A stretch of DNA of 64,000 bases from Chloroflexus aggregans DSM 9485 (GCF_000021945.1 NC_011831.1:1313353-1377352), one strand, 5' to 3'. Numbered from the stretch's first letter, positions 25,878-51,310 are shown. Notes: a model not told the origin generated them from the letters alone. Program-made: numbers and translations.

Positions 25878-25946
25878 TCACGCAAAGGACGTTAACGCAA
25901 AGACCGCAGAGGGCGCAAAGGCGCAAAGAGGTTAACGCAAAGGCGC
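25878..25946. repeat. Copy A of a dispersed repeat with ACGCAAAG(G/A) motifs at about 11-bp periodicity
   Basis: About 85% identical to 51243..51310. It lies in the 5' region of marR. Confidence 0.5.
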
Positions 25947-25951
25947 TATGG

Positions 25952-26080
25952 GCACCACCCGTAGGGGCACGGCGTGCCGTGCCCTCACTGACGCACAGCA
26001 CGCCACCCGTAGGGGCACGGCGTGCCGTGCCCTCACTGACGCACAGCACGCCACCCGTAGGGGCACGGCACGCTGCGTGG
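25952..26080. repeat. 48-bp tandem repeat (2.6 copies), each unit containing a 9-bp GC hairpin (gggcacggc-gt-gccgtgccc)
   Basis: Direct tandem read from the sequence, with no spacers, so it is not CRISPR-like. It lies between the histidine-kinase gene end and the marR promoter. Confidence 0.6.
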
Positions 26081-29159: not shown

Positions 29160-29960
29160 TTGTATTACTGTTGTATTACGCACGAAAGGTTGTTGAACGT
29201 GGAACTCTTCGATCTCGCCTTAATCTTTACCGCTGCATTGCTGGCCGGTGCATTGAACGCGATTGCCGGCGGCGGTAGCTTCTTTTCTTTTCCAGCCCTT
29301 TTAGTCGCCGGCGTGTCACCAATCGTCGCCAATGCGACAAATGCGTTGGCACTCTGGCCGGGCACGCTGGCGAGTGTCGGTGCCTACCGGCGCGAGCTGA
29401 GTGGTCAACGGAACGACATTTGGCTCTTCAGCGGGTTGAGCCTGATCGGTGGACTGCTCGGTGCGCTGTTGTTACTCGCTACCGATGAACAACGTTTTAC
29501 CGCCTTGATCCCGTACCTGTTACTCTTCGCCACCCTGATCTTTACCTTTAGCCCACAGATCACCACCGTAGCCCAACGGCTGGTCGGTCATGGCAGTCGT
29601 CAGCAACGCCTGTTGGTTACGGTTGTCTATTTTGCCATTGCCATCTACGGTGGTTTTTTTGGTGCCGGACTGGGGATTCTCACCCTCGCGGCTTTGGCCT
29701 TGCTCGGTCACGACAACATTCATCGGATGAATGCGCTGAAAACTTTGCAGGCGGCGCTCGTTAACGGGATTGCGGTGGCGACCTTCGTTGCCACCGGCTT
29801 GATCGCGTGGCTACCGGCCCTGATCATGACGATCGGCGCGATCGCCGGCGGCTATGGCGGTGCGGCGATTGCCCGCCGCATAGACGCCCGCCGGGTTCGC
29901 ACCGTGGTTGTGTGGATCAGCATCGGTTTGACGGTCTGGTTTTTTGTGCGTGCATCCTGA
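29160..29960 (+). CDS. TauE/SafE-family (DUF81) anion exporter membrane protein
   Basis: Multiple TM helices with duplicated GxGGG-like motifs (AGGGSFFSFP and GAGLGILT). The likely start is GTG at about 29198. Confidence 0.7.
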   Translation: MYYCCITHERLLNVELFDLALIFTAALLAGALNAIAGGGSFFSFPALLVAGVSPIVANATNALALWPGTLASVGAYRRELSGQRNDIWLFSGLSLIGGLLGALLLLATDEQRFTALIPYLLLFATLIFTFSPQITTVAQRLVGHGSRQQRLLVTVVYFAIAIYGGFFGAGLGILTLAALALLGHDNIHRMNALKTLQAALVNGIAVATFVATGLIAWLPALIMTIGAIAGGYGGAAIARRIDARRVRTVVVWISIGLTVWFFVRAS

Positions 29961-30075
29961 TCGCCATCGGTACGGTCGGATACTGAGTGGGTAGCGGTGC
30001 GCTCCCGCTGCCGACGGCGCCGCACCGCATCCCCGGCGGATCGCCCGGACGTGATCGGAGGTCACGCTACCGGTA
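29912..30075. repeat. Left copy of a 164-bp direct repeat flanking a 13-kb island (includes the last roughly 16 codons of the TauE gene)
   Basis: About 96% identical to 43107..43270. The mismatches are clustered in one 13-bp patch. Confidence 0.7.
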
Positions 30076-30105
30076 CGGTCATACGCACCGCGACAGCGGG
30101 CCAGC

Positions 30106-30516
30106 GTGCCCTTGCTCGCGCTCCGTGCGGCTCCGGGGCGCCACCGCGCCGGTGACGCAATGGATGTGCTCGACGACGGTGACACGAACCTCACGGTACG
30201 CACCACGCGCTTCCCCACCCATCACACCCACGGCACGGGCTGCACCTACGCGACGGCGACCACCGTCCCGCAGCCTGCTGGAGCAGGCCATACGCCGGGG
30301 CCACTCGTCTTTGCCGGGGGACCATCGCTGGCGTGCGGCCCATCGGTGCGGGGTAGAGGCCGGTGGCGCACTGCCGGCGCGCGATCAGGAGTGCGATCGA
30401 TGGGCGCGCGCCTGATCATCGGTGGATCGGGCGCGGTGCAATGGCAAGGCGAGAACGCCAAACGTCTCCATGCTCCCCACGCATCAAACACGACGCCCCC
30501 GTACCGGTCAACGTAA
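30106..30516 (+). pseudogene. thiD: Remnant of thiD (HMP/HMP-P kinase) C-terminus
   Basis: RFPTHHTHGTGCTYATATT resembles the ThiD NTHGTGCTLSAAIAA motif. The surrounding reading frame is disrupted and it sits in GC-rich non-coding-looking DNA. Confidence 0.3.
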
Positions 30517-30779
30517 TGATCGCCGCTGTGAAGGGGCAGGAATACGCCGGTAGGTCCCAATGCCCTCACGTGCAGAGGGTGGATGGGATGAACGCGCTTG
30601 CACCGCCGCACCTCTTCCGATAGCGGCTTGTGCGGTGCGGCGCGCGGAGTGGTTGCAGCGCAGCGCGCCGCGCTCCTGATCGAGCAGTCCGCGTGAATGA
30701 CCGGAAGAAAACATCTGGAACGCATTGACATCAGATAGAGAGTGACCTATAATTAGTTTGTCTACCGCGCAATGTACAA

Positions 30780-31030
30780 CGATAATACAGCAAAATTGCA
30801 TGCGAGTTTCAAGTGCGAAGGTTATCCGTCTATCAGGGCATGCGCGGGCATAGGGCATAGGTGGATGAGGGGCGGCCGAACGCGGTACGGTGCGGGATGA
30901 GACGGACGGTTTGTCTATCTAATGTGGTGCTGGCGAATATCGGCGGATGAAAGGCGGCTGAACGCGGTGCAGGGTGGGAATAGATAGACGGTTCTCCGTC
31001 TAACGTAGTACTGGCTGGGATAGGCAGAGG
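30780..31030. repeat. Degenerate tandem repeats of about 85 bp, with a recurring GGTTnTCCGTCTA(T/A)C motif in three copies
   Basis: The units ggatgaGGggcggcCgaacgcggt... and ggatgaAAggcggcTgaacgcggt... are about 75% identical. This is too degenerate and irregular to be a CRISPR array. Confidence 0.45.
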
Positions 31031-31318
31031 TGGTCAATCTACTTCATATTAGCCCGCTTCGTAGCCATTCGAGAAATAGAAGGGTGCGAATCGGTTATGA
31101 AATCATCTGACGCAAGGCGTAACATAACAATATACAATCAGCGTCTTCTGAAAATCAAAAAGTATAGGTCAGTATGCATGCTTTCAATCTGAGTTAGCGA
31201 GTTAACCAGCGCATGCATCCGACAAACTTCGCCTCGCTGCGCCCGGCTTGCCGTAGGTGATGCGTGGGTCCTTGGGCGTTATCACATTACCGTAATCCAT
31301 ACACAATCAGGCCAGGTA

Positions 31319-32683
31319 ATGAAAACGACAAAGAAATTTTTCGGTATATTCCCCAAAATATTATTCTTTCCAGTTCTGTTTGTTATTATGGCGTTGCCTC
31401 AATTGCTTTCCAAATCACCTTCGCCATTTTTCAGATCTATTAAGCAGCTTTTGGAATCACAATCTATTTTCACGATATTACTCATCGTTTTTGGAATACT
31501 ATTACTGATAGTACTGATAGCTGTAGTTGCTGTTCTGACAGATGATGAGTGGAAAGAAAACATGAAAAGAAAAGTTGACACTACCGAAGCAGTTAAACGC
31601 GAGCGAGGGGGAAACGGAATCTATACAGACCCGATACCGTTCATCTGGATATTTTCTGTCTTAACTTATGTCTATGTAGAGACAGGTAAAGAATGTGCTA
31701 TTGTGGACGGAGAGCGCATTATTGAAACGAAACAATGGATAACCAAATCTTTCTTCCACGATGCAGTTATCCGGTATGTTTTACTTGAGCCACCACCTCT
31801 AATTATGACTATCGAAAATGTTCGCACGCAAGATGATTTGTACCTCACTGCCGATATCTCTGTTACATACAGAGTTCGAGATCCACTTGCTATTATCAAG
31901 AAAGCTGACCCTCTGAAAATTCTACAAGAGCATGTTAAATCACAATGTACTAATTTAATAGGGCGACTAGACTATTACACTATCGCGGATAAAAAAGCCA
32001 AATATGAAAACGAGATATGTGCAGCTATCCAGCGAGAAAGCATATTACCACTTTTTGAGATTACCAGTGTTCATCTTGAGATGAAATTAGCGGTTGACCC
32101 GCGAAACGTTGAAAAGATTGAAGAACTGAAGAGACAGCAAAAAGAGAAGGATCTTCTGGTTGAAGATAGACAGAAAGAGCGTGATCATGCCCGTGAGATA
32201 GATAAAGCGAAAATCGGGGCAGGTTTAACCATTATTAAAGAGACGGCTGAAATTGCAAAAGGAAGATCGGAGTCCACCAAAGAATACATAGATTCTCTAG
32301 GTCCTAGGGCTATATTATCTATGATAGGAACTCCTTATCATAACTTAGAATCGGCTCCAAATCTACCTATGTTGACCGAAGCAACAGAAAGGTCGAGATA
32401 TGAACGTGAAAAGCCTGAACTCGATAATCTGCAAGAAAACGGTGTAATCAAAAACTATGAATCTCGATGGAGTAAAGATGGAAATTTCTGTGGCGTGGTG
32501 ATTGAGGTGGATGATGGACAAATTCATATTTTGTCCCCAAGCTATCCAGATATTGCCCCGACTATTCAATTCATTTCTAGATCAGGTCAAACTTATGAAT
32601 GGCCTATTGAAAAATGGAATGCTAATATGACTATCGTGCATGTTATCACAATTGCACTCAGTAAAATAAAACTTCTTCAATGA
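31319..32683 (+). CDS. SPFH/band-7 (stomatin/prohibitin/flotillin-like) membrane protein with a long C-terminal extension
   Basis: Two N-terminal TM helices. The SPFH core is TQDDLYLTADISVTYRVRDPLAIIKKADPLKILQEHVKSQCTNLIGRLDYY. AT-rich codon usage. Confidence 0.55.
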   Translation: MKTTKKFFGIFPKILFFPVLFVIMALPQLLSKSPSPFFRSIKQLLESQSIFTILLIVFGILLLIVLIAVVAVLTDDEWKENMKRKVDTTEAVKRERGGNGIYTDPIPFIWIFSVLTYVYVETGKECAIVDGERIIETKQWITKSFFHDAVIRYVLLEPPPLIMTIENVRTQDDLYLTADISVTYRVRDPLAIIKKADPLKILQEHVKSQCTNLIGRLDYYTIADKKAKYENEICAAIQRESILPLFEITSVHLEMKLAVDPRNVEKIEELKRQQKEKDLLVEDRQKERDHAREIDKAKIGAGLTIIKETAEIAKGRSESTKEYIDSLGPRAILSMIGTPYHNLESAPNLPMLTEATERSRYEREKPELDNLQENGVIKNYESRWSKDGNFCGVVIEVDDGQIHILSPSYPDIAPTIQFISRSGQTYEWPIEKWNANMTIVHVITIALSKIKLLQ

Positions 32684-32692
32684 GAGTTATTT

Positions 32693-33232
32693 ATGAATAA
32701 TCCTATTGATATAATGATCTTGATCGTCGTAGGATTGGCAACTTTTATAGGCTTTTTCAAATCACCAAGCTCTATTGTGATCGAAATGATATTACTTTAT
32801 GTAGCCGTGGTTCTAACCTTTCAGTATTTGGTGGGAATTAGTGAAATCATCTCAGGTATATTATCAGTAAACGAACGGGTAATATATATTCTAGGTACAG
32901 CGCTCATATTGGGGATCTATTATGGATTGATAAAGACTTACAACCAAATATATAAGCCAAAGCCCAAGAATGAATCAGGGAATCGCGTGTGGGTTTCTCG
33001 GATAATTAGCGGGAGCCTAGCACTGATTCACATTAGCTTTTTGCTAAGTGCGTTGTTTACAATGATTTATCCACTGGCCTTCGAATGTAGAGAAAGTCTG
33101 ACAGACATACCTTATGAACTATGCATTGCAGCAGATATACTTGAACACAGTGAAATCATGAACAGTAATGCGACAATCGAAATGCTTGACGTATATAATG
33201 CGATAATCCAATTTTGGATTCCACCGAGGTAA
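32693..33232 (+). CDS. Small integral membrane protein (about 4 TM)
   Basis: Hydrophobic segments are present. It follows the SPFH gene after a 9-bp gap. Confidence 0.45.
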   Translation: MNNPIDIMILIVVGLATFIGFFKSPSSIVIEMILLYVAVVLTFQYLVGISEIISGILSVNERVIYILGTALILGIYYGLIKTYNQIYKPKPKNESGNRVWVSRIISGSLALIHISFLLSALFTMIYPLAFECRESLTDIPYELCIAADILEHSEIMNSNATIEMLDVYNAIIQFWIPPR

Positions 33233-33245
33233 TTGGAGGGATAAC

Positions 33246-36038
33246 ATGCACTTAAGAGAACCTTACATTTTTACAATAAATGATTCTGTTGGCGCAAAAG
33301 GAGTTCATGCAATTTTTGCAGCGCGAGTTCCGTTTATCCCTAGCTTTATGACCAGTGATTTTACACGCTCTTTGTCGGGTGGTGGAAAAAGCCGGCTAGA
33401 ATTGATAACTGAACGGCAAGTCAGGTTCATTAACGATTTGCTAAATACCCGCAATATTGGTGTTGCCAATGAAAAAAACTCAGCCAATATAACTATTGAC
33501 TTGCGATATATTGCGCGACCAAATGCAGATAAGAAAAGATTTTCGAGTAACATAGATGTTGTTTTCTTAGGTAAAGCTTTTCACGAAGATGAGGCAACAG
33601 CAAAACGCCTTTGTCATCAATTGTGGCGCAAATTTATCGCGCATTTCCCTTTTGAGGACCCTTTTAACTATCCCCTGGAAGCAGTGAGCTTAGGAGGAGA
33701 CAGTCGGGAAGATATTGACAGGTGTATGGAAACCATGAGGGGATTGGTATATCCTATTCCATTTAATCAACTAGATTGCTCAAATAATCCCTTGCTAGAA
33801 ATACGGAAATATGAAGATTTTGATCCAGAACTTTCGCCAGGAGCAATTGAGGGATATTTTCCGCATCGTTTTATGCCCACATTCGATACTTCAGCCCTCG
33901 GCAGATTTTTAGAAACATTGGTACAACAACAGCAATTATGTGTTGCAAGCATCTGTCTTCGTCCTACACAGTTAACAAGGGATGAAGAAATCTTTCTAAT
34001 GGATTTATTAGCTAAAAATGAAACATATATAACTAAACTAACAGGGCGCAAAAAGCTTCACTTTGAAGAAAGATTCCAAGATGTCCGGGACACTTTTTGG
34101 CCCATTATTAACCGGCGTTATCACTTATTTCAAATCAAAATTCAGGTTTTGGGAGAAAAATACCCCCCAACCGATGTTTTAGAAGCACTTGGTTCAGAAT
34201 TGCTCGGAAATACTTACAAGCAAGAACCTCGTTTATGGGCTAAAGAACAACCTGCAACTATTAATGAGCTAAAAGTAGCCCTGTATAATTTTGAATGTCT
34301 GGAATATAAATCCTGGGGAAAACGAATATTATCTGACTCACGTGCTATACGCCTGCGTCAGTTAGTCACACCGACCGAAGCCGCAGGTGCTTTCCGCTTG
34401 CCCATACCACCTGAAAGTGGTTATTTGCCAGGTATTATTGTACGCGATGAGCCTTTTGTCATACCTCAAAGCACTGCGTCCAGTTCAGTAGAAAGTATTT
34501 CCTTAGGGGAGATTTTTCATCATGGTCAAGCTACAGGGGAAAACTTTTTTGTCCCTGTGCGTGATTTAGCTAAACACGTATTGATTGCTGGCGCAACTGG
34601 TAGTGGTAAAACAAACACCTGTTTGCATTTATTATCACAGCTCTATGCTGACTACAAAGTACCTTTTTTAGTTATGTATCCCATTGATAAATCAGACTAT
34701 CGGCTTTTGATCGGCGATCCTGCTATCAAAGATAGCCTTTTAATTTATACAGTAGGCGATGAAACTACATCACCATTTCGTTTTAATCCATTCTATGTTG
34801 CTGATAAAATTCTGCTCAAAACACATATCAGTTTATTGATGCGCTGTTTTTCAGCCGCGTTTAGTATGTGGGATCCTTTACCAGCAGTATATCGCGCCGC
34901 TTTACGACAAGTTTATCGAGCAAATGGATGGGATTTAGACCATGATACAGGAGAAACTGGGCGTATGCGCCAAGCAAAAACTCCTTGTATGTCACAATTT
35001 TACGAAGTTCTACTATCTGTGACAGAACAAATGACCGCAGGTTATGATGAAGAGGCCAAAGGGCGTGTGCGTCAATCGGCAGAGATTCGCTTACATGATT
35101 TGCTGCTAAATGCCGGAACAGTGGTTAATACCGAACAACCTGCGCCTATTGCTGATATTTTAAGATATCCTACCGTAATGGAATTGGGGCGAGTTGGCTC
35201 AACACAGGACACAGCGTTGATTATGGGTTTTTTGATAGTCTTGCTTATCGAGGAAATACAAAGCAACTATAGGAAGATATCAACCGAAGAACGTCAAAAG
35301 CCATTACGTCATGTGCTGCTTATTGAAGAAGCGCATAGATTGATGTCAGCTGTTCAAAACGCCAGTGAAGATTTAGCCAATCCGCAAGCAAAAGGGGGAG
35401 AAGATTTTGCTAATATTCTCGCAGAGGTGCGCGGATTTGGGCAGGGTATATTTATAGCTGAACAAATCCCAACGCAACTTGTAAATGGAGCTCTAGGTAA
35501 TACAAATTTGAAGATTATGCACAGATTGGAAGATCAAGATAGCTTCAAATTGTTTTGTGAAATTCTCAATCTGAATGAGCGGCAAAAAGAATATGTCCGT
35601 TCGTTAGAGCCTGGACAAGTTATAGTACGGGGACGGGATAGCCGACCGGTTTTTGTAAAGGTGGGTAATTATCTTGATCGTTTTCAAACGTCCGATGATT
35701 ATCCTCTTGTAGATGATAGTGACGAAGCGGTCAAAAAACTTATGAGTAGGGCAAACCTATCTGTGCGTATTCCTACCGCAATGCAATGGTATCCAGAAAA
35801 CGCTATATCCACGTCAACAAGTGCAGACATTTTACTAACTGATGACTCTCAACCCTTCTTGGAAACAGTGCAACAGGCCGTGGAAAGTGAAAATTGGGAA
35901 CGAGTTAGACGAGTAATTTCAGGGTGGTTGAATCCAGCAAATTCACAAAAAATTAAGGTCAAGCTGTGTGAGGAAATTGTCAGAAAATTGAATTACACAG
36001 GCACACAGGCCGAAATAATTCTTTCCCTTTTCAAATAA
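33246..36038 (+). CDS. HerA/FtsK-like (DUF87-type) P-loop ATPase, 930 aa, with an N-terminal extension of about 450 aa
   Basis: Walker A VLIAGATGSGKTN and DEAH-like Walker B HVLLIEEAHRLM. A downstream GFGQGIFIAEQ...R segment is typical of HerA/VirB4-type ATPases. Confidence 0.6.
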   Translation: MHLREPYIFTINDSVGAKGVHAIFAARVPFIPSFMTSDFTRSLSGGGKSRLELITERQVRFINDLLNTRNIGVANEKNSANITIDLRYIARPNADKKRFSSNIDVVFLGKAFHEDEATAKRLCHQLWRKFIAHFPFEDPFNYPLEAVSLGGDSREDIDRCMETMRGLVYPIPFNQLDCSNNPLLEIRKYEDFDPELSPGAIEGYFPHRFMPTFDTSALGRFLETLVQQQQLCVASICLRPTQLTRDEEIFLMDLLAKNETYITKLTGRKKLHFEERFQDVRDTFWPIINRRYHLFQIKIQVLGEKYPPTDVLEALGSELLGNTYKQEPRLWAKEQPATINELKVALYNFECLEYKSWGKRILSDSRAIRLRQLVTPTEAAGAFRLPIPPESGYLPGIIVRDEPFVIPQSTASSSVESISLGEIFHHGQATGENFFVPVRDLAKHVLIAGATGSGKTNTCLHLLSQLYADYKVPFLVMYPIDKSDYRLLIGDPAIKDSLLIYTVGDETTSPFRFNPFYVADKILLKTHISLLMRCFSAAFSMWDPLPAVYRAALRQVYRANGWDLDHDTGETGRMRQAKTPCMSQFYEVLLSVTEQMTAGYDEEAKGRVRQSAEIRLHDLLLNAGTVVNTEQPAPIADILRYPTVMELGRVGSTQDTALIMGFLIVLLIEEIQSNYRKISTEERQKPLRHVLLIEEAHRLMSAVQNASEDLANPQAKGGEDFANILAEVRGFGQGIFIAEQIPTQLVNGALGNTNLKIMHRLEDQDSFKLFCEILNLNERQKEYVRSLEPGQVIVRGRDSRPVFVKVGNYLDRFQTSDDYPLVDDSDEAVKKLMSRANLSVRIPTAMQWYPENAISTSTSADILLTDDSQPFLETVQQAVESENWERVRRVISGWLNPANSQKIKVKLCEEIVRKLNYTGTQAEIILSLFK

Positions 36039-36638
36039 GTGAGGTTTCAAATGATATCTGGACGAGTCAACAGCACACGAAACAATGCATCAAGATCGGT
36101 TCGGTCAACGAACATCAAGTCACGCTTTGGTCCATTAAGAGTAAGCACACCATCAAGTTCAACAAGGATCTCTACTCCAAGAATACCGCGAGTTTCCAGC
36201 GCGAGCAAGAAAAAAGCAACGAAATTTGCTAAAACAATGAAAGCAGGACGTACATTTCAGAAGCGGGTTAATAAAGAATTGATGAAAAGGCACGATAAAG
36301 TTTACTCTGAGGTGTATGTACAGGGTAAAAAATCACACAATGCTAGAATTGATCACCTTGTGGATAGTAAGAAACTACAGCCGTATTCCACCAAGAACTC
36401 AAGGTGGCACAAAGTACAAGCGACGACATGGAAAAAATATGTACGTGAGGCCGCCAAATACCCAGACCGGACTATTCTAACCAACAAGCCAGGGTATACC
36501 CATTTGAAAGGACGCAAGGTAGGTAAAAATCCTGTGTTAGTAATGCCGAAAAGGTACTTAAAAAAAGATACCCAAGCGCGTCTGCAAGAAATAAAAACTT
36601 ACGCTAGTAAAAGACGGGTTCGCATAGAATTACAATAG
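36039..36638 (+). CDS. Highly basic (Lys/Arg/Ser-rich) hypothetical protein; possible nucleic-acid-binding or toxin-like component
   Basis: Extreme K/R content. It is immediately downstream of the ATPase, and the probable true start is ATG at about 36051. Confidence 0.35.
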   Translation: MRFQMISGRVNSTRNNASRSVRSTNIKSRFGPLRVSTPSSSTRISTPRIPRVSSASKKKATKFAKTMKAGRTFQKRVNKELMKRHDKVYSEVYVQGKKSHNARIDHLVDSKKLQPYSTKNSRWHKVQATTWKKYVREAAKYPDRTILTNKPGYTHLKGRKVGKNPVLVMPKRYLKKDTQARLQEIKTYASKRRVRIELQ

Positions 36639-36647
36639 GAGGAAAAA

Positions 36648-37058
36648 ATGGACATCAACATTAAGGAAACTCTTACATCTTTGAAAATAGACTTCATTGA
36701 GTTAGAAAATGATGTTTATGGTCTTAGTATAGCTTCCACCGATGAAAGTAGTCGTAGTTTTCCAGTAGTACTATTTCAATGGACAGCTGGAGATGAGCAA
36801 GAATACATACGTTTGATAATCGCTCCTTTTATAGAGCGCCCAAATGAAGGTTTTGCTTTTGACCTGTTTGAACGGGTTTTAGCTATCAATGAACAATTAC
36901 CTAGGGCTAAATTCTTATTAGACAGTGATGGCGATTTGGGATTAGCATTGGATATAGATATTGAAGAATGGCGTTCGGAGAATTTAGCACGTGCGCTGGA
37001 CGTGTTGGGGTCATTTGCTGATTATTGTTACGAAGAATTAGAGTCTTTTGGCAAGTAA
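36648..37058 (+). CDS. Acidic small protein, YbjN/T3SS-chaperone-like; possible immunity or partner of the basic protein
   Basis: D/E-rich with a predicted alpha/beta pattern. It lies 9 bp after the basic-protein gene. Confidence 0.3.
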   Translation: MDINIKETLTSLKIDFIELENDVYGLSIASTDESSRSFPVVLFQWTAGDEQEYIRLIIAPFIERPNEGFAFDLFERVLAINEQLPRAKFLLDSDGDLGLALDIDIEEWRSENLARALDVLGSFADYCYEELESFGK

Positions 37059-37757
37059 TCTACGGTATACAAAGAACCATCCAACAAGCACATGCACCTG
37101 ACGCGTCTGGTGCTGCCGTCATTGACGGTGAAACGGGCATTGCGACTAGATTTTTGGCGAAAGTGTTTACCACGCACCCGCTACGCGGGTGATGCTCAGG
37201 TCATTGGGTTGCGGAAATAAGTTCTCTGCGCGATAACAAAAAGACACATTGCTCACTAAAACTAGAATGGAGGTAAAGAATGGGTGGCCTTGCGCAATTT
37301 CTCTCTGGAGTGAATTTTCGTGTCACTATACAGAAGTACTGTAAAAAGGATGGAGAATCAATGACATTACAGGCATCGTTGCCTTGCCGCAGGTCACCTG
37401 TCTTGTCGTGGTTCGTCTGGCGAGGTGCGCAGCGACTGAAGTCGACCGGGCTGGCAGGGCATGAGGCTTCTGTCGGCGGTGGGGTTGTGCCCGCGATGTC
37501 CTTGCCTGGGGTGGTGTGAGAAGGTCATGGGTGTCTGGGATGTTGCTGCCGTTGTGCTATAATTCTCAGGCGTGATCGTTATGTCACTTTGCTAATAGGA
37601 ACAGGCAGGGCTTGCGGTCGGTGGGGGCTTGCTTCCGTTCTGGGGGTTGCGGCTAACACGCGCATGCAGGCGACTACTCCGCTTTGCTCGGTCGCAGCGG
37701 CTGAAGCGCAGGCCGTTAGCCAGCGCAACGTGGTTCAAGTCAGAAAGGTGAACAAAA

Positions 37758-37982
37758 ATGCTCCAAGTAAATTTAGAAGAAGCGAAAGGTCGTTTGCCCG
37801 AATTGGTTAATGCCGTGCTAAAGGGTGAAACGGTGTTGATTGTTACAGACCTTCAGGCAATCGTCCAACTGGTGCCCGTGATCTCTTCCATGCGCCGCCA
37901 GTTTGGGAGTGCGAAAGGATTGATTGTCATGGCGGATACTTTCGATGCACCACTCCCAGACTTTAACCCGTATATGCCATGA
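37758..37982 (+). CDS. vapB: Type II antitoxin, Phd/YefM-like (VapB-type partner)
   Basis: MLQVNLEEAKGRLPELVNAVLKGETVLI is a classic antitoxin N-terminus. It overlaps the downstream PIN gene start (ATGA). Confidence 0.6.
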   Translation: MLQVNLEEAKGRLPELVNAVLKGETVLIVTDLQAIVQLVPVISSMRRQFGSAKGLIVMADTFDAPLPDFNPYMP

Positions 37983-38364
37983 AACTACCCCTTGATACAC
38001 ACGCTTTCCTGTGGTTCATCGGCGGTGATGAGCGCCTCAGTCCCAGTGCACGGGCGTTGATTGAAGACATGAGCAATGATGCTTATCTTAGCATTGCCAG
38101 TCTATGGGAGATGGCGATCAAGATCAGTCTTGACCGACTGCAATTGGCACAGCCTTTTGAGATTTTCATCCCACACCAATTAAGCCTGAATAGGATCGGG
38201 TTACCTGTATCACGATGAGCCATACCGCTAAGGTAGCTACCCTGCCCTTTCACCATCGTGACCCTTTTGACCGCTTGCTGGTGGCACAGGCCCAGGTTGA
38301 GCAAATGCCCCTTGTGAGCAGCGATGCAGTATTTGACGCATATGGCCTTATGCGTTTGTGGTGA
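37979..38364 (+). pseudogene. vapC: VapC PIN-domain toxin, frameshifted at about 38215
   Basis: The N-terminal 79 aa (LDTHAFLWFIGGDERLS...SLWEMAIKIS) end at TGA. The PIN C-terminus (LPFHHRDPFDRLLVAQAQVEQMPLVSSDAVFDAYG) continues in the -1 frame. Confidence 0.6.
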
Positions 38365-38425
38365 GTGAAAGAAAAGACAAGATGCGCTGGCTACCGATGC
38401 GTTGCACGTGTCAAGTCCCTGCACC

Positions 38426-38956
38426 TTAAGAAAGGACAATAACTGGTTGCAGAGTTGCGGAAGGCTGGCTCTGAAGTGATCCGTGTGAAAGGCAGCTATC
38501 ACTTTTTGCGACATCTCGACGGACAGCGCACTGTTGGTCCCGTTCATCGTGGAGAGACCATTGGCTCAGGGTTGATGTCGAAGATTCTGCGTGACTGCGA
38601 GATGAGCCGTGATGAGTTGGAAAAACTCCTGTAATCGCGTCATCGGTTGCAGTGGAAAGATCGAGCGGCGGTTGCCCGGGACGGCGCAGCACGGCGCGCG
38701 GCGTCTTTCCCTGACGCCGCATCGTCGCGCACCAGGCGTTCAGTTTCTCGGCAATCTTCTCGGCGAGCGCGATGGCAGCGGTCACGCCGGTCGCTACCCT
38801 GCCGATCTCGTCGATCACAACCACGACCGTCTGCCAGTCGATGTCTCTGGTGGGTTCGCGCTGAACTTCAGCGCCCGCAGCGCGGAGAAGCGCCGGTAAG
38901 GACTCACGCTCATCGTTTGGAAAGTCGAGCGTGAAACTGAGATCATGCTTCGTCAT
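38426..38956 (-). CDS. Hypothetical protein (possible mobile-element fragment), antisense or convergent to the hicA remnant
   Basis: The ORF starts at MTKHDLSFTLDF.... Its C-terminal half is low-complexity and reads through the hicA remnant, so it may be spurious or decayed. Confidence 0.15.
   Translation of the reverse strand: MTKHDLSFTLDFPNDERESLPALLRAAGAEVQREPTRDIDWQTVVVVIDEIGRVATGVTAAIALAEKIAEKLNAWCATMRRQGKTPRAVLRRPGQPPLDLSTATDDAITGVFPTHHGSSRSHAESSTSTLSQWSLHDERDQQCAVRRDVAKSDSCLSHGSLQSQPSATLQPVIVLS
38443..38634 (+). pseudogene. hicA: HicA-family toxin remnant (no start codon; preceded by in-frame TAA)
   Basis: LVAELRKAGSEVIRVKGSYHFLRHLDGQRTVGPVHRGETIGSGLMSKILRD matches the HicA fold motif (GSHH..). 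The N-terminus is truncated. Confidence 0.4.
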
Positions 38957-38974
38957 TGATGGACTCCTGCACTC

Positions 38975-39110
38975 AAATGGAAGACAAGCGTAGCATATGA
39001 CGCAGAAGTCGGCAAGGCTCAAGCGCTGTAATCAGCTCTTTGGCAGTTCAACCGTAAGACAAGTGTAGCATATGACACAGAAGTCGGCAAGGCTCAAGCG
39101 CTGATGAGCG
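38975..39110. repeat. Two direct repeats of about 50 bp (agacaagYgtagcatatgacRcagaagtcggcaaggctcaagcgctg) plus a partial third
   Basis: Read directly from the sequence; about 92% identical copies, 70 bp apart. Confidence 0.6.
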
Positions 39111-39164
39111 GAGCACATGACGCAGGAGTCGGCAAGTGTCACTGACCGTCACGTGCGTTGACCG

Positions 39165-39430
39165 AGCAGACCGCCCCCCCTGCGCGCACCCACCGAGGGG
39201 ACGGACGGTGAGATAACGTATCGGGCGCGCATCCTCGTATGGCGCACCCCGGCACATCCACCAGGGGACGGATCCGCGCGCGTGATGCCGGCCTGCCCCC
39301 AAACCTGGCGTCAGCCCTCCGGTCCTCCGCACGCGGAGGGTTCCAGGCGGATTGCCCCCGCGCGCACCCCTGGCACACCCACCGGGGACGGACCCGCGTG
39401 CGTGGCGCCGGTCGTCCTGCTCCTGCGTGC
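39165..39430. repeat. Three degenerate GC-rich repeats of about 90 bp (gcgcgcaccc..ggggacggaYSSg core)
   Basis: Recurrent motif read from the sequence. No coding frame is conserved across the copies. Confidence 0.4.
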
Positions 39431-40369
39431 CGGTTTGGGAATCACCGGGGATCACGTGGGATTACAGGGGTGCCCGTTGGTAAACTCTCCTACACAAATA
39501 GCCCAATGGTTAGCAGAAATCAGGGGACAATGTTGGATAGAATCTGGTATTCGTGTTGCATCCGTGCATTATCAGTGGGATGAACAGATTAACAAAATAT
39601 TTGCTATTACAAATAATTTTAGAAAGCCGTTACCTGATAGAGTATCTGCTATTTTAGCATTTTGGGCTTCTGAAAAAGCGGGCTAACACCGTTTGCAGCG
39701 GGCAGCGGCTCCGCCGCTGCGGGGCACGCGCCGCGAGCCGGCAAGGTAGTTTTTAGACGAAGGAGTCTTGGCCGTCACGCCGCTGCCGCTGAAGCGAACC
39801 GTTGGGTGGCGGGGTGTTGCAACTAGTCTTGGAGAACGTAAACGTAGAGAGAAGCCCACGCGGGGAACGCATCGAGGTACACAGGGGCATGGATGGAAGA
39901 ACCGGCCGTTGTTCGGCATTGACGGCGGCAGTGATGGTAACGTGCTGGTGCAGGTCAATCCCGATAAGCGGGGAGTGGATGTGTCCATCGCGACTTCCCG
40001 GTGGTACAATGGATAAGGTGCGGCTTTGGGCTGGAGGTTTAACGACCGATGCGGGCTTGGTAGGCAGGTCGTTGACCTGTCCCTACGCTCCTAAATACGC
40101 GCATCCAACGGGGAACCGTAAGAGCGAATCGGTGCTTCGCCCCAACACGGGATTGCCCTGCGTATGGTTGAAGGGCGCCCAGAGGCTACGGCAGCTTGCC
40201 CACACACTCCGTACCCTGGTGCGTTCCCGTCACTCATCACGACTAAGGATACCCTTTTTCGCGCCCAACCGCAACTATATTCTTATAACACGCGCTTCTA
40301 GCCGACAGGCTTCGTCCAGCATCCGGCTGAAGCGCTGGCCGTTAGGACGTCAGATAGGAAAGGATTGAC

Positions 40370-41253
40370 ATGAGTCATAGCGGACAGCCATTGGCAGAGG
40401 TCTTCGGTCACCTGGTCACCGATCAAACAGATACGGCGAAACGGTATCGTTCTCTTCGTCTCTGTCCCTTCAACAACAAGGTGCCGAATTGCACAAAGGA
40501 CAAAGCAAAGAATCCCCTTGGCGTGTGCAGCATCTATCATGAGAACGCGCCTGTCATTACGCGCCTGTCATTACGTGCCCCATCCGATTTCGTCAGGACT
40601 GGATCATTGCTGACCATGCCGCAGCTTTCTTTTTTGAGGAAGGAACACGGTGGACCTCTCTGACTGAAGTGCGTTTACATGATGCTTATGGCAAGTCTGC
40701 TGGAAACATTGATGTGGTTCTCGTTGCCTATGATGATAAAGGGCGGGTTATTGATTTTGGTGCTCTTGAGATCCAGGCTGTTTATATCTCCGGCAACGTC
40801 CGTGAACCATTCGAGTATTACATGGGCGATCCGCAAAACAGGGCTTCCATGGATTGGTCCGCTGAGCCGAATTACCCTCGTCCTGATTATCTCTCATCTT
40901 CTCGTAAAAGGCTCGTTCCACAACTCGTTTATAAGGGCGGAATCTTGCATAGCTGGAAAAAGAAGATTGCTGTGGCACTGAACAAGAGCTTCTTTGCTAC
41001 GCTACCCACTCTCGAACAAGTCTCAAAGAATGAGGCAGATATTGCCTGGCTCATCTACGATTTGGAGCTGCGTGAAGGGCGATACTATCTGACGAAGGTG
41101 GACGAGGTTTTTACTGAATTTGAACCCGCGCTGCTTTCTATTACAACACCATTGCCTGGAAGAGTGGAGGATTTCATCAAACTGCTTCAGGAAAAGCTCG
41201 ACGAGCAATTGGAAACTCCTCCGACAAACCAAACCATCGAGAGGCCGTTTTGA
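40370..41253 (+). pseudogene. Type II restriction endonuclease with an N-terminal Cys4 metal-binding motif (NotI-like architecture), disrupted by a 14-bp tandem duplication
   Basis: A Cys4 cluster (CPFNNKVPNC...GVCS...ITCP once repaired). gcgcctgtcattac is duplicated at about 40547-40574, shifting the frame; removing one copy yields a continuous 291-aa ORF (...ITCPIRFRQDWIIADHAAAFFFEEGTRWTSLTEVRLHDAYGK...). A PD-(D/E)xK-like IDVVLV...ALEIQAVY segment lies downstream. Confidence 0.4.
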
Positions 41254-42254
41254 CTATGTCGACACAGAGACAGCTCCCGTTATTTTCTGAGGAAATGGCT
41301 TTGCCACGCCCGGTGAATGTCGCGTCAGTTCCGCAGCGAAGTCCTTTCCGCTACCCTGGCGGAAAGACATGGTTTGTGCCCACATTCCGACGCTGGGTAG
41401 CTAGTCTGAAACGCAAGCCCCTCATACTCGTTGAACCGTTCGCCGGTGGGGGGATCATCAGCCTTACCGCCCTCTTTGAAAACTTGGTCGAAAAGGCGGT
41501 CATGGTCGAATTGGATGATGAAGTGGCAGCCGTGTGGGAAACCATCGTAAACGGTGATGCGGTGTGGCTTGCCAATCAAATCTTGACCTTCACAATGACG
41601 AGAGAAGCCGTTGAAGCGGAGCTTCAGAAAACTCCCACGACCATACGGGAAAAAGCGTTTCAGACCATTCTGAAAAACCGAACGCTTCATGGGGGAATAC
41701 TCGCTGAAGGCTCTCGCTTCATCAGATACGGAGAAAACGGAAAAGGAATCGGTTCTCGATGGTATCCGAAGACACTTGCTCAGCGACTCATCAATCTGAA
41801 TACTGTTGCACATCGGATTGATTTCCGGTGCGATGATGGCTTGAATGTGATGATGGAGTTTGCCCACCGTGAGGATGTTATCTATTTTATTGATCCTCCC
41901 TATACCGTCGGTGGCAAAAAGGCGGGCAAACGGCTGTATAAACATCATCAGCTTGATCACGAACATCTCTTTACAATTTGTGAGTCGCTCGTGGGCAATT
42001 TTCTTATGACATATGATGAAGCAGATGAAGTGAAGGAAATGGCTCGAAAGCACAGGTTTCAGATGCGTTTGATTCCGATGAAAAATACGCATCACGCCAC
42101 AATGAGAGAATTAGTCATTGGAAGAGATGTATCGTGGTTGGACGAGTTGCCTGCCATTCACGAAGCAAGAGTCGAATATCGTGGTACGACATCCGAGCAA
42201 GAAACGTCCTCCCCACGCACTCCGGCCGACCGTCCCTCATGTGCGCAATCGTAG
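41250..42254 (+). CDS. DNA adenine methyltransferase, Dam-like (D12 class)
   Basis: N-terminal FRYPGGKTW (motif I/X of the Dam family) and YFIDPPYT (motif IV, DPPY). Its start overlaps the endonuclease stop (ATGA). Confidence 0.65.
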   Translation: MTMSTQRQLPLFSEEMALPRPVNVASVPQRSPFRYPGGKTWFVPTFRRWVASLKRKPLILVEPFAGGGIISLTALFENLVEKAVMVELDDEVAAVWETIVNGDAVWLANQILTFTMTREAVEAELQKTPTTIREKAFQTILKNRTLHGGILAEGSRFIRYGENGKGIGSRWYPKTLAQRLINLNTVAHRIDFRCDDGLNVMMEFAHREDVIYFIDPPYTVGGKKAGKRLYKHHQLDHEHLFTICESLVGNFLMTYDEADEVKEMARKHRFQMRLIPMKNTHHATMRELVIGRDVSWLDELPAIHEARVEYRGTTSEQETSSPRTPADRPSCAQS

Positions 42255-43106
42255 CGGCCAGGTGCCGTGCGTCAGCACGTCCCCGTGAACGTGATGAAGG
42301 CGGGAGGGATGGATGCGCAGAAGAGAACACCTAGAAACTTCTTGACGTGGTGTATGAAGTGAACTATATGTATCACGATAATACACTGTGTAATATACAC
42401 AACTGAGATTATAGTATCTTTTGCTAGTTTAATCCCTATTTATTAAGAAGATAAGAGAAGTTCTTTTTGACTTGTGACAACACCAAAGACGCACCACTCC
42501 CACATGTCAGCGTTGTCGAGCAGTCACACCCGTGGAAGTTGATGCACTCGTTCGCCCCGGTGACCGGATTCGTGCGCTTGTATCGCTGTTTGCTTTGGAG
42601 GTGGCATCGTCTCCCTTCTCGTCGTCGTTGCCGGTCGGGGTGACGAGAATGCTCGTGTACCATATGTCCGTCTTGTGGTGCGCGTCATCGGTGGGCGTTC
42701 GACGATTGATCACGCAGTGTTATGAAACAAGAACACCAAACGCGATAGAACCAGACCACAGATCGGCAGAAAACGACAGCGAGTGATACGTCTTATCGCA
42801 AAATCTTAGAAGCAGAAGCAACGGTCTTTGTGCAGTGGGAGCGGCAGCAAAGACCTTCCACATTTTTGGAACGATAGTGTGTGATCCGGTGATGACCATC
42901 TGTTGCACGTTGCACCATCTTTACGTTCGTGCTCAGGCCATAACCTCCAAGAGTAGGTTGTAGGATGTTCTTTAGGTTCCAGTTGGGCCAATGCCGATAC
43001 CTTTGAACGCAGTGCGCAACGACGTGAAGGTGGTCTGCTTGTGTGAGACGGCAGCGAGCCACTACCGGATTACGGATTGAGGATGGCAATCGTTGCGCAA
43101 TCCCTG

Positions 43107-43270
43107 GTGGATCAGCATCGGTTTGACGGTCTGGTTTTTTGTGCGTGCATCCTGATCGCCATCGGTACGGTCGGATACTGAGTGGGTAGCGGTGCGCTCC
43201 CGCTGCCGACGGCGCCGTAACACATACCCGGCGGATCGCCCGGACGTGATCGGAGGTCACGCTACCGGTA
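43107..43270. repeat. Right copy of the 164-bp direct repeat; overlaps the 3' end (last 4 codons plus stop) of the histidine-kinase gene
   Basis: See 29912..30075. Confidence 0.7.
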
Positions 43271-44549
43271 AGGTAAACCAGAACGTCGAACCACGCCCTT
43301 CTTGGCTACTGGCCCAAATCCGGCCACCGTGCCCTTCGACCAGATGTTTGGCAATCGCCAAGCCCAAGCCGGTGCCGCCGGTATGGCGGGTACGCGCCCG
43401 GTCAACTTTGTAGAAGCGCTCGAAGATACGCCGAATATCGCGACTAGAAATGCCGATCCCGGTATCGCGCACACTGATCAAGATCCACGTACCTGCCGGA
43501 TGCGGCGGTCGATCTGTCCGCGAGGGAGGATCATCGACGGCAATATGCAATACTTGGGCGGCAACGGTGATTGTGCCACCTTCGGGGGTAAACTTAACCG
43601 CGTTGTGTAACAAATTGAGCAACACCTGCCCAATCCGATCACCGTCCATTAGCGCGGGCGGTAGATCGGACACCGGTTCGGTACAGATAGTGTGGTGTTT
43701 GCGTTCGGCTTGGGGACGGATACGCTCGATCGCCCGCTCTATCACCGGCCAGACGGCGAGCGGCTCCAGCTTCAACGAGACCCGACCCGACTCGAGACGT
43801 GATAACTCGTGCAGTTCATCAACGAGTTGGGTGACGGCATCGATCTCTTGTGCCATCTGTTCGAGCATCCGAGCAGCGATATCGGGTGGTGGGGCCGATT
43901 GCAACGTCTCAACCAACAATTTGAGCGAAGCTAACGGCGTGCGCAATTCGTGCGACACATTAGCAACCAGATCACGCCGCGCGCGCTCTAACATACTGAT
44001 TTGGGTTAAATCACGGATTGTGATCAGCGCACCGACAATATCCCGCGAAGCGGTGTATAACGGGACAAACTGCAAGTGGAGTGTGCGCCCGGTTGCCAGT
44101 GGACGGATCGTTAATTCACGTTGCTCACCATCGGTCATCGCATCGTGCGCCAATCGGTCAGCTTGATGATCGCGCACCAACGTGATCAACCCACTCCCAC
44201 GCATATCAGGCTGACCGGCCAACAAATGAATTGCTGTGTCGTTATGAAAGACGATTTGACATGCGCGATTGACGACGATGACACCGGTATCGATGGTTTG
44301 CACAAGGGCGACAAAGAGGGGCTGACAGTTGGGGAGGCCAAGCTGGAGCGATGGATCGTCCGGTGGAAGTGATGATGAGAGGGTAAGCGTCATTACCTCA
44401 TCCTGTTCCGCAACAGATGGTGCAGCAGTAGACTCTTGGTCACGGGCAACACGTAAGCGTTCAAGCTGACGCCCCCGGCGCACGGTGAAGATCAGGCTCA
44501 CCGTTAACACAACCGTCGCCACCGTCAGCGTCAATTCCAACAGGGTCAT
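43257..44549 (-). CDS. Two-component sensor histidine kinase (PhoR/BaeS-like)
   Basis: N-terminal TM, PAS-like region, H-box SHELRTPLASL, N-box LLNLLHNAVKFT, and G-boxes DTGIGIS and GGTGLGLAI. Confidence 0.85.
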   Translation of the reverse strand: MTLLELTLTVATVVLTVSLIFTVRRGRQLERLRVARDQESTAAPSVAEQDEVMTLTLSSSLPPDDPSLQLGLPNCQPLFVALVQTIDTGVIVVNRACQIVFHNDTAIHLLAGQPDMRGSGLITLVRDHQADRLAHDAMTDGEQRELTIRPLATGRTLHLQFVPLYTASRDIVGALITIRDLTQISMLERARRDLVANVSHELRTPLASLKLLVETLQSAPPPDIAARMLEQMAQEIDAVTQLVDELHELSRLESGRVSLKLEPLAVWPVIERAIERIRPQAERKHHTICTEPVSDLPPALMDGDRIGQVLLNLLHNAVKFTPEGGTITVAAQVLHIAVDDPPSRTDRPPHPAGTWILISVRDTGIGISSRDIRRIFERFYKVDRARTRHTGGTGLGLAIAKHLVEGHGGRIWASSQEGRGSTFWFTLPVA

Positions 44550-45317: not shown

Positions 45318-45394
45318 TGGTCGGGGCGGAGGGATTTGAACCCACGACCCCCGCGTCCCAAACGCGGTGCTCTACCAGGCTGAGCCACGCCCCG
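45318..45394 (-). tRNA. tRNA-Pro (anticodon TGG)
   Basis: The reverse complement folds as a canonical cloverleaf: acceptor CGGGGCG/CGCCCCG, anticodon loop tTTGGGa, T-arm GGGTTCAAATCCC, and an encoded CCA. Confidence 0.8.
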
Positions 45395-51242: not shown

Positions 51243-51310
51243 TAACGCAAAGGACGCTGACGCAAAGACCGCAAAGGGGGCAAAGGACGCAAAGAATGTG
51301 AACGCAAATG
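51243..51310. repeat. Copy B of the dispersed ACGCAAAG-periodic repeat, in a divergent promoter region
   Basis: About 85% identical to 25878..25946. Confidence 0.5.

Follow-up and report, generated by a model that had tools for sequence, protein, structure and literature searches.

How did a 13-kb block bounded by long direct repeats come to lie between two convergent genes of Chloroflexus aggregans DSM 9485, and what kind of element is it? The block lies within a 64,000-nucleotide stretch of the genome (GCF_000021945.1, NC_011831.1:1313353-1377352), here called the window, and separates tauE from a gene for a sensor histidine kinase (HK). In a first-pass annotation of the sequence it had been described as a horizontally acquired, partly decayed island with no integrase. 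We conclude that it is probably a decayed chromosomal integron array without an integrase, resembling a CALIN (cluster of attC sites lacking integron integrase, the sites numbering two or more and spaced by under 4 kb; Cury et al. 2016, PMC4889954), and that it is an old insertion between tauE and HK. We favour this reading because the block contains predicted attC sites of the family found in the Roseiflexus castenholzii integron, and because a related locus, L011, has an integron integrase (intI) pseudogene at the same junction of repeat and thiD fragment (Table 1).

The two copies of the direct repeat (DR), DR-L and DR-R, align without gaps over 168 nt and are identical at 163 positions (97%). 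The repeat had been reported as 164 bp long and about 96% identical; it is real, but slightly longer and closer. All five mismatches (at 30023, 30025, 30027, 30031 and 30076) are in the last 57 nt, and the first 111 nt (29912-30022 and 43107-43217) are identical. Both copies have the same three-part layout: the terminal 16 codons of tauE (stop codon included), then a spacer of 101 nt, and lastly 18 nt from the 3′ terminus of HK. DR-L completes the real tauE gene with its last 49 nt (29912-29960) and ends in a copy of the HK terminus (30062-30079). DR-R completes the real HK gene, of which the last 18 nt are the final five codons and the stop; the HK stop codon (43257-43259) therefore lies within the second repeat copy, as first annotated. 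The repeat encloses an interior of 13,027 bp and is the longest within the window. A 24-nt core of the repeat was found at only two sites in the window with three mismatches permitted, compared to none expected by chance, and a 37-nt repeat pattern had no match in metagenome or viral collections, so within the sequences examined the repeat is not a dispersed element. A 16-nt motif, CGCYAYCGGTACGGTC, is present after the tauE stop (29962-29977) and at the HK stop (30065-30080), and again at 43157-43172 and 43260-43275. The spacer is thus bracketed by a sequence resembling the HK 3′ end, which may reflect an earlier insertion at the same point, or chance. The spacer was also considered as a structured recombination site and dropped, the single-strand fold of the 168-nt repeat having a z of 0.27. 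A weak DNA similarity between the region to the right of DR-L and the HK 3′ coding region failed at the protein level.

A scan of species-representative genomes (GTDB) for TauE yielded eight Chloroflexus loci with an empty site (L003-L010) in addition to L011. A TauE scan of metagenomes yielded three further loci, one of which duplicated a genome locus, giving ten distinct empty-site loci. In all ten, galT-gntR-tauE lies next to HK-RR-orf170-MFS (RR, response regulator), with tauE and HK convergent and 10-110 bp apart; tauE orthologues next to HK in related genomes are 84-96% identical. The closest empty-site relative, L009 (96% amino acid identity), contains the repeat once, at L009:10714-10881, and its alignment to the window stops at 30079 and restarts at 43107. 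The adjacency of tauE and HK in the relatives, together with the single repeat copy that the first-pass annotation had anticipated at an empty site, therefore indicates that the 13-kb block is an insertion. That it is also partly decayed, as had been proposed, is borne out by the broken vapC, hicA and NotI-like genes described below. Two further genomes, L025 (GCA_017880035.1) and L026 (GCA_026003795.1), contain DNA 81-97% identical to window positions 38642-43106, and have the same junction between island tail and DR-R. As this right junction is common to all three, the insertion is old and mosaic, and not unique to this strain. Upstream of the response-regulator gene, 2 kb beyond the right end of the island, is a tRNA-Pro(TGG) gene (45318-45394, minus strand); since this gene has the same flanks in the empty-site genomes, it is not the integration target.

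Evidence for an integron comes from short sites within the block. In the integron of R. castenholzii DSM 13941 (CP000804), a 66-75-nt site with the pattern GCCCAAC...GTTGGGC comes after each of the cassette open reading frames (ORFs) located upstream of intI (a PemK pair and a DUF2442 gene). Two sites in the block, C1 and C3, align over their full length with three R. castenholzii attC sites near the annotated integron integrase, and the RNAalifold consensus contains a 9-bp R″/R′ stem, an unpaired spacer, a 12-bp L″/L′ stem with one extrahelical base, and a variable loop. Paired R″/R′ and L″/L′ stems with an extrahelical base are the textbook attC fold. These five sites were used to build a home-made covariance model, R1, distinct from that of IntegronFinder. 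The model independently finds an attC site overlapping the hsdS stop codon in L011 (34.8 bits, E 4e-6), scores the C3 orthologue in L025 at 72.9 bits, and has no hits at E<0.05 in the empty-site loci or across the remaining 51 kb of the window. Site C2 was left out of the model, its long sequence having been misaligned by MAFFT. It has end motifs in common with C1 (GGCTAACAC at the 5′ end and GCTGAAGCG..CCGTT at the 3′ end), and its arms form a duplex of -36.3 kcal/mol, compared to -21.7 +/- 3.8 for shuffled sequences, none of 300 being as good. In an alignment of eight sites, 90.4% of cells were paired and eight pairs showed compensatory changes, whereas slid controls gave 27-39%, the alignment having been fitted to the model in a way that favours it.

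The single-strand fold energies of C1 and C2 were no better than those of shuffled sequences, so their status as attC sites is based on homology, covariation and arm pairing, and not on single-strand folds. A scan with the strict YYYAAC/GTTRRR attC pattern missed the C sites and yielded chance matches in coding regions only. A degenerate site, C0, was detected just upstream of an AT-rich gene cluster, and a weak, non-significant attC-like match (14.4 bits with R1, E 0.3) overlaps the methylase stop at 42211-42276. Taken together, the sequence comparisons identify C1, C2 and C3 as predicted attC sites of the R. castenholzii integron family, with the consensus ..CCCAACACGCGCATCCAGCCGAC...GCGGCTGATGCGC..CCGTTGGGC. 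The three are co-oriented, with gaps of 1.96 and 0.48 kb, and all of the sites and almost all of the genes are on the plus strand, as would be expected had intI formerly occupied the position that it has in L011. The unit between C1 and C2 contains several gene remnants, and that between C0 and C1 is 6.4 kb long with six ORFs.

No integrase, transposase or other recombinase domain was detected by Pfam in the called ORFs or in six-frame translations of four unassigned stretches, and neither four IntI proteins nor the pseudo-protein of L011 gave a significant match in the window by tblastn, in agreement with the first-pass annotation. The features of a complete integron (intI, and attI with its Pc promoter) were likewise not found in the window, nor was any sequence like the L011 attI. 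L011 itself is a 6,084-bp contig of a hot-spring metagenome-assembled genome and does not contain an empty site. It begins with a vapC 3′ end (94% identical to positions 38151-38432 of the window); 260 bp further on come a longer fragment of the tauE 3′ end, the repeat and the thiD fragment (89-90% identical to window 29814-30349), and then a long minus-strand reading frame. This frame matches Phage_int_SAM_4 (3e-25), with a piece of the catalytic domain in another frame. When the frames were joined, the resulting 264 residues scored 267.6 bits on the TIGR02249 'integron integrase' model (cut-off 265), and the joined protein includes the stretch between the catalytic boxes. That stretch is a feature specific to IntI. 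The best homologues of the pseudo-protein are named integron integrase, including that of R. castenholzii, and L011:1156-2153 is 81-95% identical in DNA sequence to the R. castenholzii intI/attI region, the attI region being at about 1950-2150. L011 also carries a cassette (hsdS) that ends in the attC site found by R1.

The stretch of the window that stands where L011 has intI and attI (30350-31197) has no Pfam or Rfam match and no similarity to any fetched locus. A promoter scan of this stretch identified TTGACA-17-TATAAT at 30725-30753 on the plus strand, matching the sigma-70 consensus at 12 of 12 positions and facing into the array. This promoter could be a replacement for a lost Pc promoter. 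Two 55-nt direct repeats (30857-30911 and 30939-30993) lie downstream of it. Insertion as a composite transposon or insertion sequence was considered and rejected: there is no transposase domain and no inverted repeat of at least 40 nt in the window, and the duplication, at 168 nt, is not short. No Rfam families were found.

A plausible history of such an array would include entry of an integron platform by a single (Campbell-type) crossover between the chromosome and incoming DNA. If the incoming DNA carried its own copy of the tauE end, spacer and HK end, the crossover would have left the segment in two copies, now the 168-bp repeats. IntI would have added cassettes singly at attI, among them toxin-antitoxin pairs, a NotI-like restriction-modification pair and the 6-kb AT-rich SPFH/HerA-like module. 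Later deletion of intI and attI in this strain would have left the array frozen and decaying, and gene conversion would have kept the two repeat copies nearly identical since. The successive insertions suggested in the first-pass annotation most likely took place at attI or attC sites inside the element and not at the 168-bp 'att-like' repeat. Its description of a remnant island holds in that the block is decayed and has no integrase; the probable nature of the block as an integron cassette array with attC sites went unrecognised.

The few differences between the repeat copies bear on this history. At alignment columns 116 and 167 DR-L has the base of L011, whose copy adjoins the thiD fragment, and differs from each of the four native copies (DR-R, L009, L025 and L026). 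At column 118 DR-L again agrees with L011, but also with L025 and L026, so that the native copies are split; the remaining two differences are uninformative, and none contradicts the pattern. As judged from these bases, the pattern would fit a single crossover with an incoming copy, and would not be predicted by a fresh duplication followed by random mutation. The DR-R orthologues of L025 and L026 differ by 6-16% from that of the window over the 111 nt that are identical between the two copies within the genome, which suggests gene conversion between DR-L and DR-R.

Several points weigh against the interpretation as a decayed integron. Model R1 was built from five sequences, two of them from the window itself, and its E-values are rough; it does not find C2, and C0 is weak. 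The interval between C0 and C1, at 6.4 kb, is far above typical cassette size. With no intI or attI in the window, the link to an integron depends on one 6-kb metagenome contig, L011, which was assigned to 'Anaerolineae' on binning and could contain a false join at the repeat. The left part of the island in L025 and L026 contains genes on the opposite strand that are not cassette-like (the CHAT and NB-ARC genes described below). The origin of the repeat is deduced from very few informative bases, and to our knowledge neither the insertion of an entire integron nor the formation of 168-bp duplications is a known activity of IntI. Finally, the single repeat copy in L009 could equally be the scar of island loss.

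This last point leads to the strongest of the alternatives. It is quite possible, although we think it the less probable course of events, that the island or a precursor was ancestral to the C. aggregans clade, and that genomes of the L009 type lost the block by homologous recombination between the repeats, in which case the 100-nt spacer of L009 would be a scar and no naive target. The window, L025 and L026 share the left junction of DR-R, so that the insertion predates their split. In more distant Chloroflexus there is no spacer and the tauE and HK stop codons are about 10 bp apart, yet the island-free L009 has the spacer. The order of segments in L011 (right end of the island, repeat, left end of the island) is also what repeat-by-repeat recombination would yield, whether as a circle or a tandem array, although it could result from an assembler mis-join. 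Gain of the block after the L009 split fits equally well in the absence of a strain phylogeny, however, and the spacer could predate the insertion. Moreover, ancestral presence concerns only the direction of change, and is compatible with an integron.

A second alternative is that a phage-type tyrosine or serine recombinase placed a circular element at an att site in the tauE-HK spacer, making the block the remnant of a prophage or integrative element, with the 168-bp repeats as attL and attR, an integrase gene that was later deleted, and attC-like sites that are incidental passengers. Integrase-type islands inserted at the 3′ ends of tRNA or protein genes have a deviating GC content, direct repeats that restore the termini of the neighbouring genes, and unoccupied sites in relatives. 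All three are found here, and the last two are the hallmark of such islands. The layout of L011 is as expected of an attP or circular junction, and the 16-nt motif, present both behind the tauE stop and at the right-hand boundary of the repeat, could be a twice-used core site. This motif is no better, however, than several chance pairs from the same list of repeats, and the repeat here spans the whole intergenic region and both gene ends. No phage-type integrase or fragment of one was detected in the ORFs or six-frame translations, and the sole integrase at this junction in any relative is an integron integrase. No excisionase, transfer, conjugation, plasmid or phage genes are present in the block, and comparison with 50,697 phage and 72,556 plasmid records revealed no DNA similarity. 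We therefore regard this origin as unlikely.

A bolder proposal, which we also consider unlikely, is that the whole integron is a mobile unit without a transposon and that, separately, the 6.4-kb SPFH/HerA-like/YbjN module is an unusually large cassette with an undescribed defence module. Such a unit could carry a captured copy of its target (tauE end, spacer and HK end) and cycle between integrated and circular or tandem states across at least 168 bp of homology, in which case the L011 junction with intI would be the circular or tandem form. The putative defence function of the 6.4-kb module could be related to that of bacterial E1/E2/JAB operons. If true, this would provide a route for en-bloc transfer of 'sedentary' integrons between strains.

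It is very improbable that the attC-like elements are ordinary REP-like (repetitive extragenic palindromic) repeats of Chloroflexales, and the block a generic defence island that arose by illegitimate or homology-facilitated recombination with no integron involved. The single-strand folds of C1 and C2, the small number of sites (three or four) and the presence of other GC-rich repeats nearby (25955-26069) would all be consistent with this. Against it, the sites resemble the intI-adjacent sites of R. castenholzii and L011 in their sequence as well as their paired architecture, follow the AAC...GTT end rule, are co-oriented with the genes, and have no counterparts in the 51 kb of flanking window or the empty sites at the threshold given above. 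An assembly or duplication artefact can be dismissed, since the finished C. aggregans genome carries the block, contigs in independent Logan assemblies of SRR253098 and SRR9436135 end precisely at the edges of the repeat, with the island interior as a separate contig of 13,091 bp, the right junction recurs in two other genomes, and the copies differ at five positions.

Table 1. Features of the tauE-HK locus, in window coordinates
Feature	Position	Strand	Evidence and remarks
tauE (sulfite-exporter family), left flank	29199-29960	+	Pfam TauE 4.5e-40; start codon uncertain, ORF opens at 29160
DR-L	29912-30079		tauE 3′ end, spacer, copy of HK 3′ end; right-hand variant bases match L011 copy
GC-rich (72%) filler	30080-30349	+	90% nucleotide identity to L011:805-1077
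thiD (phosphomethylpyrimidine kinase) fragment, 38 residues	~30151-30264	+	Phos_pyr_kin 2.2e-5, profile positions 171-208 of 246
Stretch where L011 has intI and attI	30350-31197		Perfect sigma-70 promoter and two 55-nt direct repeats
C0, degenerate attC-like site	31198-31280	+	R′ CTTGGGC instead of GTTGGGC; model R1 22.2 bits, E ~0.004
AT-rich five-gene cargo	31319-37058	+	39.7% GC; Pfam
SPFH/Band-7 protein	31319-32683	+	Pfam
Small membrane protein	32693-33232	+	In AT-rich module
HerA/FtsK-like P-loop ATPase, 930 aa	33246-36038	+	Pfam; weak PADLOC mad8/HerA matches; identical to a protein of C. aggregans MD-66/DSM 9485
Unassigned 199-aa protein	36039-36638	+	In AT-rich module
YbjN-like protein	36648-37058	+	Pfam
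orf79	37280-37519	+	Small ORF after AT-rich module
C1, predicted attC	37651-37721	+	R″ GGCTAAC ... R′ GTTAGCC; 79.4 bits, but used to build model R1
vapB	37758-37982	+	Upstream of vapC pseudogene
vapC pseudogene	37979-38367	+	PIN 1.4e-5 on N-terminal part; C-terminal part in another frame
hicA toxin fragment	38432-38634	+	HicA_toxin 1.8e-7; no start codon, in-frame stop
GC-rich repeat segment, then short AT-rich piece	38642-39680		81-94% identity to L025/L026, homology from 38642
C2, predicted attC, 127 nt	39681-39807	+	Long variable loop; R″ GGCTAAC, R′ GTTGGGT
Short cassette, 475 bp, between C2 and C3	39808-40282	+	Conceptual translation 94% identical in L025/L026
C3, predicted attC	40283-40347	+	R″ TTATAAC ... 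R′ GTTAGGA; 22 nt upstream of NotI-like gene
NotI-like restriction endonuclease pseudogene	40370-41253	+	Pfam NotI 6.7e-47 and 5e-5 on two pieces
D12-class DNA methyltransferase, intact	41250-42254	+	Pfam MethyltransfD12 9.4e-11; 94% identical and full-length in L025 and L026
Island tail, ~850 bp	42255-43106		Last 168 bp common to L025; from 42428 onward common to L026
DR-R	43107-43274		49-nt copy of tauE 3′ end, spacer, real HK 3′ end
PAS/HisKA/HATPase sensor HK, right flank	43257-44549	-	Pfam (HisKA/HATPase_c); identical to C. aggregans ACL24009.1

The contents listed in the first-pass annotation (thiD fragment, tandem repeats, AT-rich cassette, vapBC, hicA fragment and restriction-modification pair) were each recovered. 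Searches for exact protein matches to the tauE product (with two choices of start) and to the methylase gave none, probably owing to the different translation of non-ATG start codons. The AT-rich cluster is 5.7 kb long and has a GC content of 39.7%, compared to about 56-58% in the flanks. PADLOC detected no complete known defence system in this module, its weak mad8/HerA matches being confined to the ATPase, which belongs to a widespread, unnamed family. A core of the Band_7 protein and the ~930-aa ATPase recurs in Oscillochloris trichoides and another genome (L020 6604-10811; L021 6699-11677), and the YbjN-like gene also accompanies the core in L021. In those genomes the core sits in operons with ThiF (E1-like), E2-CBASS, RWD and Prok-JAB genes, which are ubiquitin-like conjugation or conflict systems; in the window the module is alone with the small membrane protein. 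By analogy with those operons, the AT-rich module may have a role in a conflict system.

To the right of the module the genes are mostly damaged. In vapC the PIN domain is split by a 1-bp deletion at about 38205; the additional base is present in L011, where the frame stays open. The hicA fragment starts at 38432, exactly where homology with L011 ends, and is flanked by this breakpoint and that of the homology with L025 and L026 at 38642. The GC-rich segment that follows (38642-39420) is conserved in three genomes, and contains three 56-nt repeats (38973-39148) and a set of 50-nt repeats (39242-39411); it gave no family match. The 56-nt repeats lie upstream of a possible minus-strand ORF at about 38640-38960. 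The short cassette between C2 and C3 has no Pfam or PADLOC match and no recognisable gene, and the island tail has no Pfam match.

A 14-bp tandem duplication (40545-40572) interrupts the NotI-like gene, and an ORF of 289 aa is restored when one copy is removed. Its lesions differ in all three genomes (window 40370-41253; L025 14357-15228; L026 13161-14033), comprising the 14-bp tandem duplication, one frameshift, and two frameshifts, and the methylase is full-length throughout. The pattern resembles recurrent loss of the toxic member of a restriction-modification pair.

Both L025 and L026 lack part of the DNA that separates the methylase stop from the tail, or have other sequence in its place. 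To the left of the position corresponding to 38642, both have genes for a CHAT protease and an NB-ARC/TPR protein (STAND NTPase) (L025 16842-20262; L026 15196-19406). These genes have internal repeats with a period of 120 bp and encode typical conflict-system proteins. An extra 1.46 kb in L025, containing a degraded Fic gene, was considered as a recent cassette insertion and rejected, there being no clean attC at its edges.

Comparison with known systems places the block closest to CALINs. As in these, C1, C2 and C3 are co-oriented within 4 kb, there is no integron integrase gene nearby, and the cassettes have unknown or defence-type functions. It differs in that the array is bracketed by a 168-bp target duplication, the intI pseudogene is found only in a relative, and one interval between attC sites is 6.4 kb. 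The long target duplication around a whole integron and the C0-C1 interval are the less usual features of this locus. Loss of intI is one proposed route to CALINs, and intI pseudogenes were found near 15 of 279 CALIN elements (PMC4889954). The R. castenholzii integron has the same attC family, intI/attI DNA similar to that of L011, and, like the block, toxin-antitoxin cassettes; it differs in having an intI ORF ('integron integrase') and another genomic context. No long flanking direct repeat was found there, in the course of an inspection that was not a systematic search. The chromosomal integrons of Xanthomonas with an inactivated intI are sedentary at one conserved chromosomal site, their integrase is often decayed, and the array content varies between strains. 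The block is similar to these, in a different phylum; we know of no reported target-site duplication around the Xanthomonas integrons. Integron cassettes encoding phage defence have been described ('Mobile Integrons Encode Phage Defense Systems', 10.1101/2024.07.02.601719), and the block resembles these in its restriction-modification, toxin-antitoxin and candidate defence genes. Here, in contrast, the defence genes are mostly dead, and the SPFH/HerA-like module matches no whole PADLOC system. Integrons and CALINs in Chloroflexi are already on record; our literature search found no paper linking C. aggregans to integrons.

If the block is a decayed integron, an anonymous integrase-less island becomes a datable example of integron decay in Chloroflexota. 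The record comprises an empty site, three mosaic occupied sites and a relative with an integrase pseudogene, as well as a restriction gene independently inactivated in three strains with its methylase surviving. A target duplication that is kept homogeneous hints that sedentary integrons may be moved or lost en bloc by ordinary homologous recombination. These observations bear on how CALINs arise and do not overturn current views.

The window contains further repeats outside the island. A perfect 48-nt tandem repeat of 2.4 copies at 25955-26069 is unrelated to it, as is a dispersed ACGCAAAGG-type repeat that occurs on both sides of the locus (25880-25921 and 51245-51295) and is expanded in L025 (3134-3318). 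Positions 3076-3339 and 6106-6357, about 3 kb apart, are 71-81% identical and probably represent paralogous genes.

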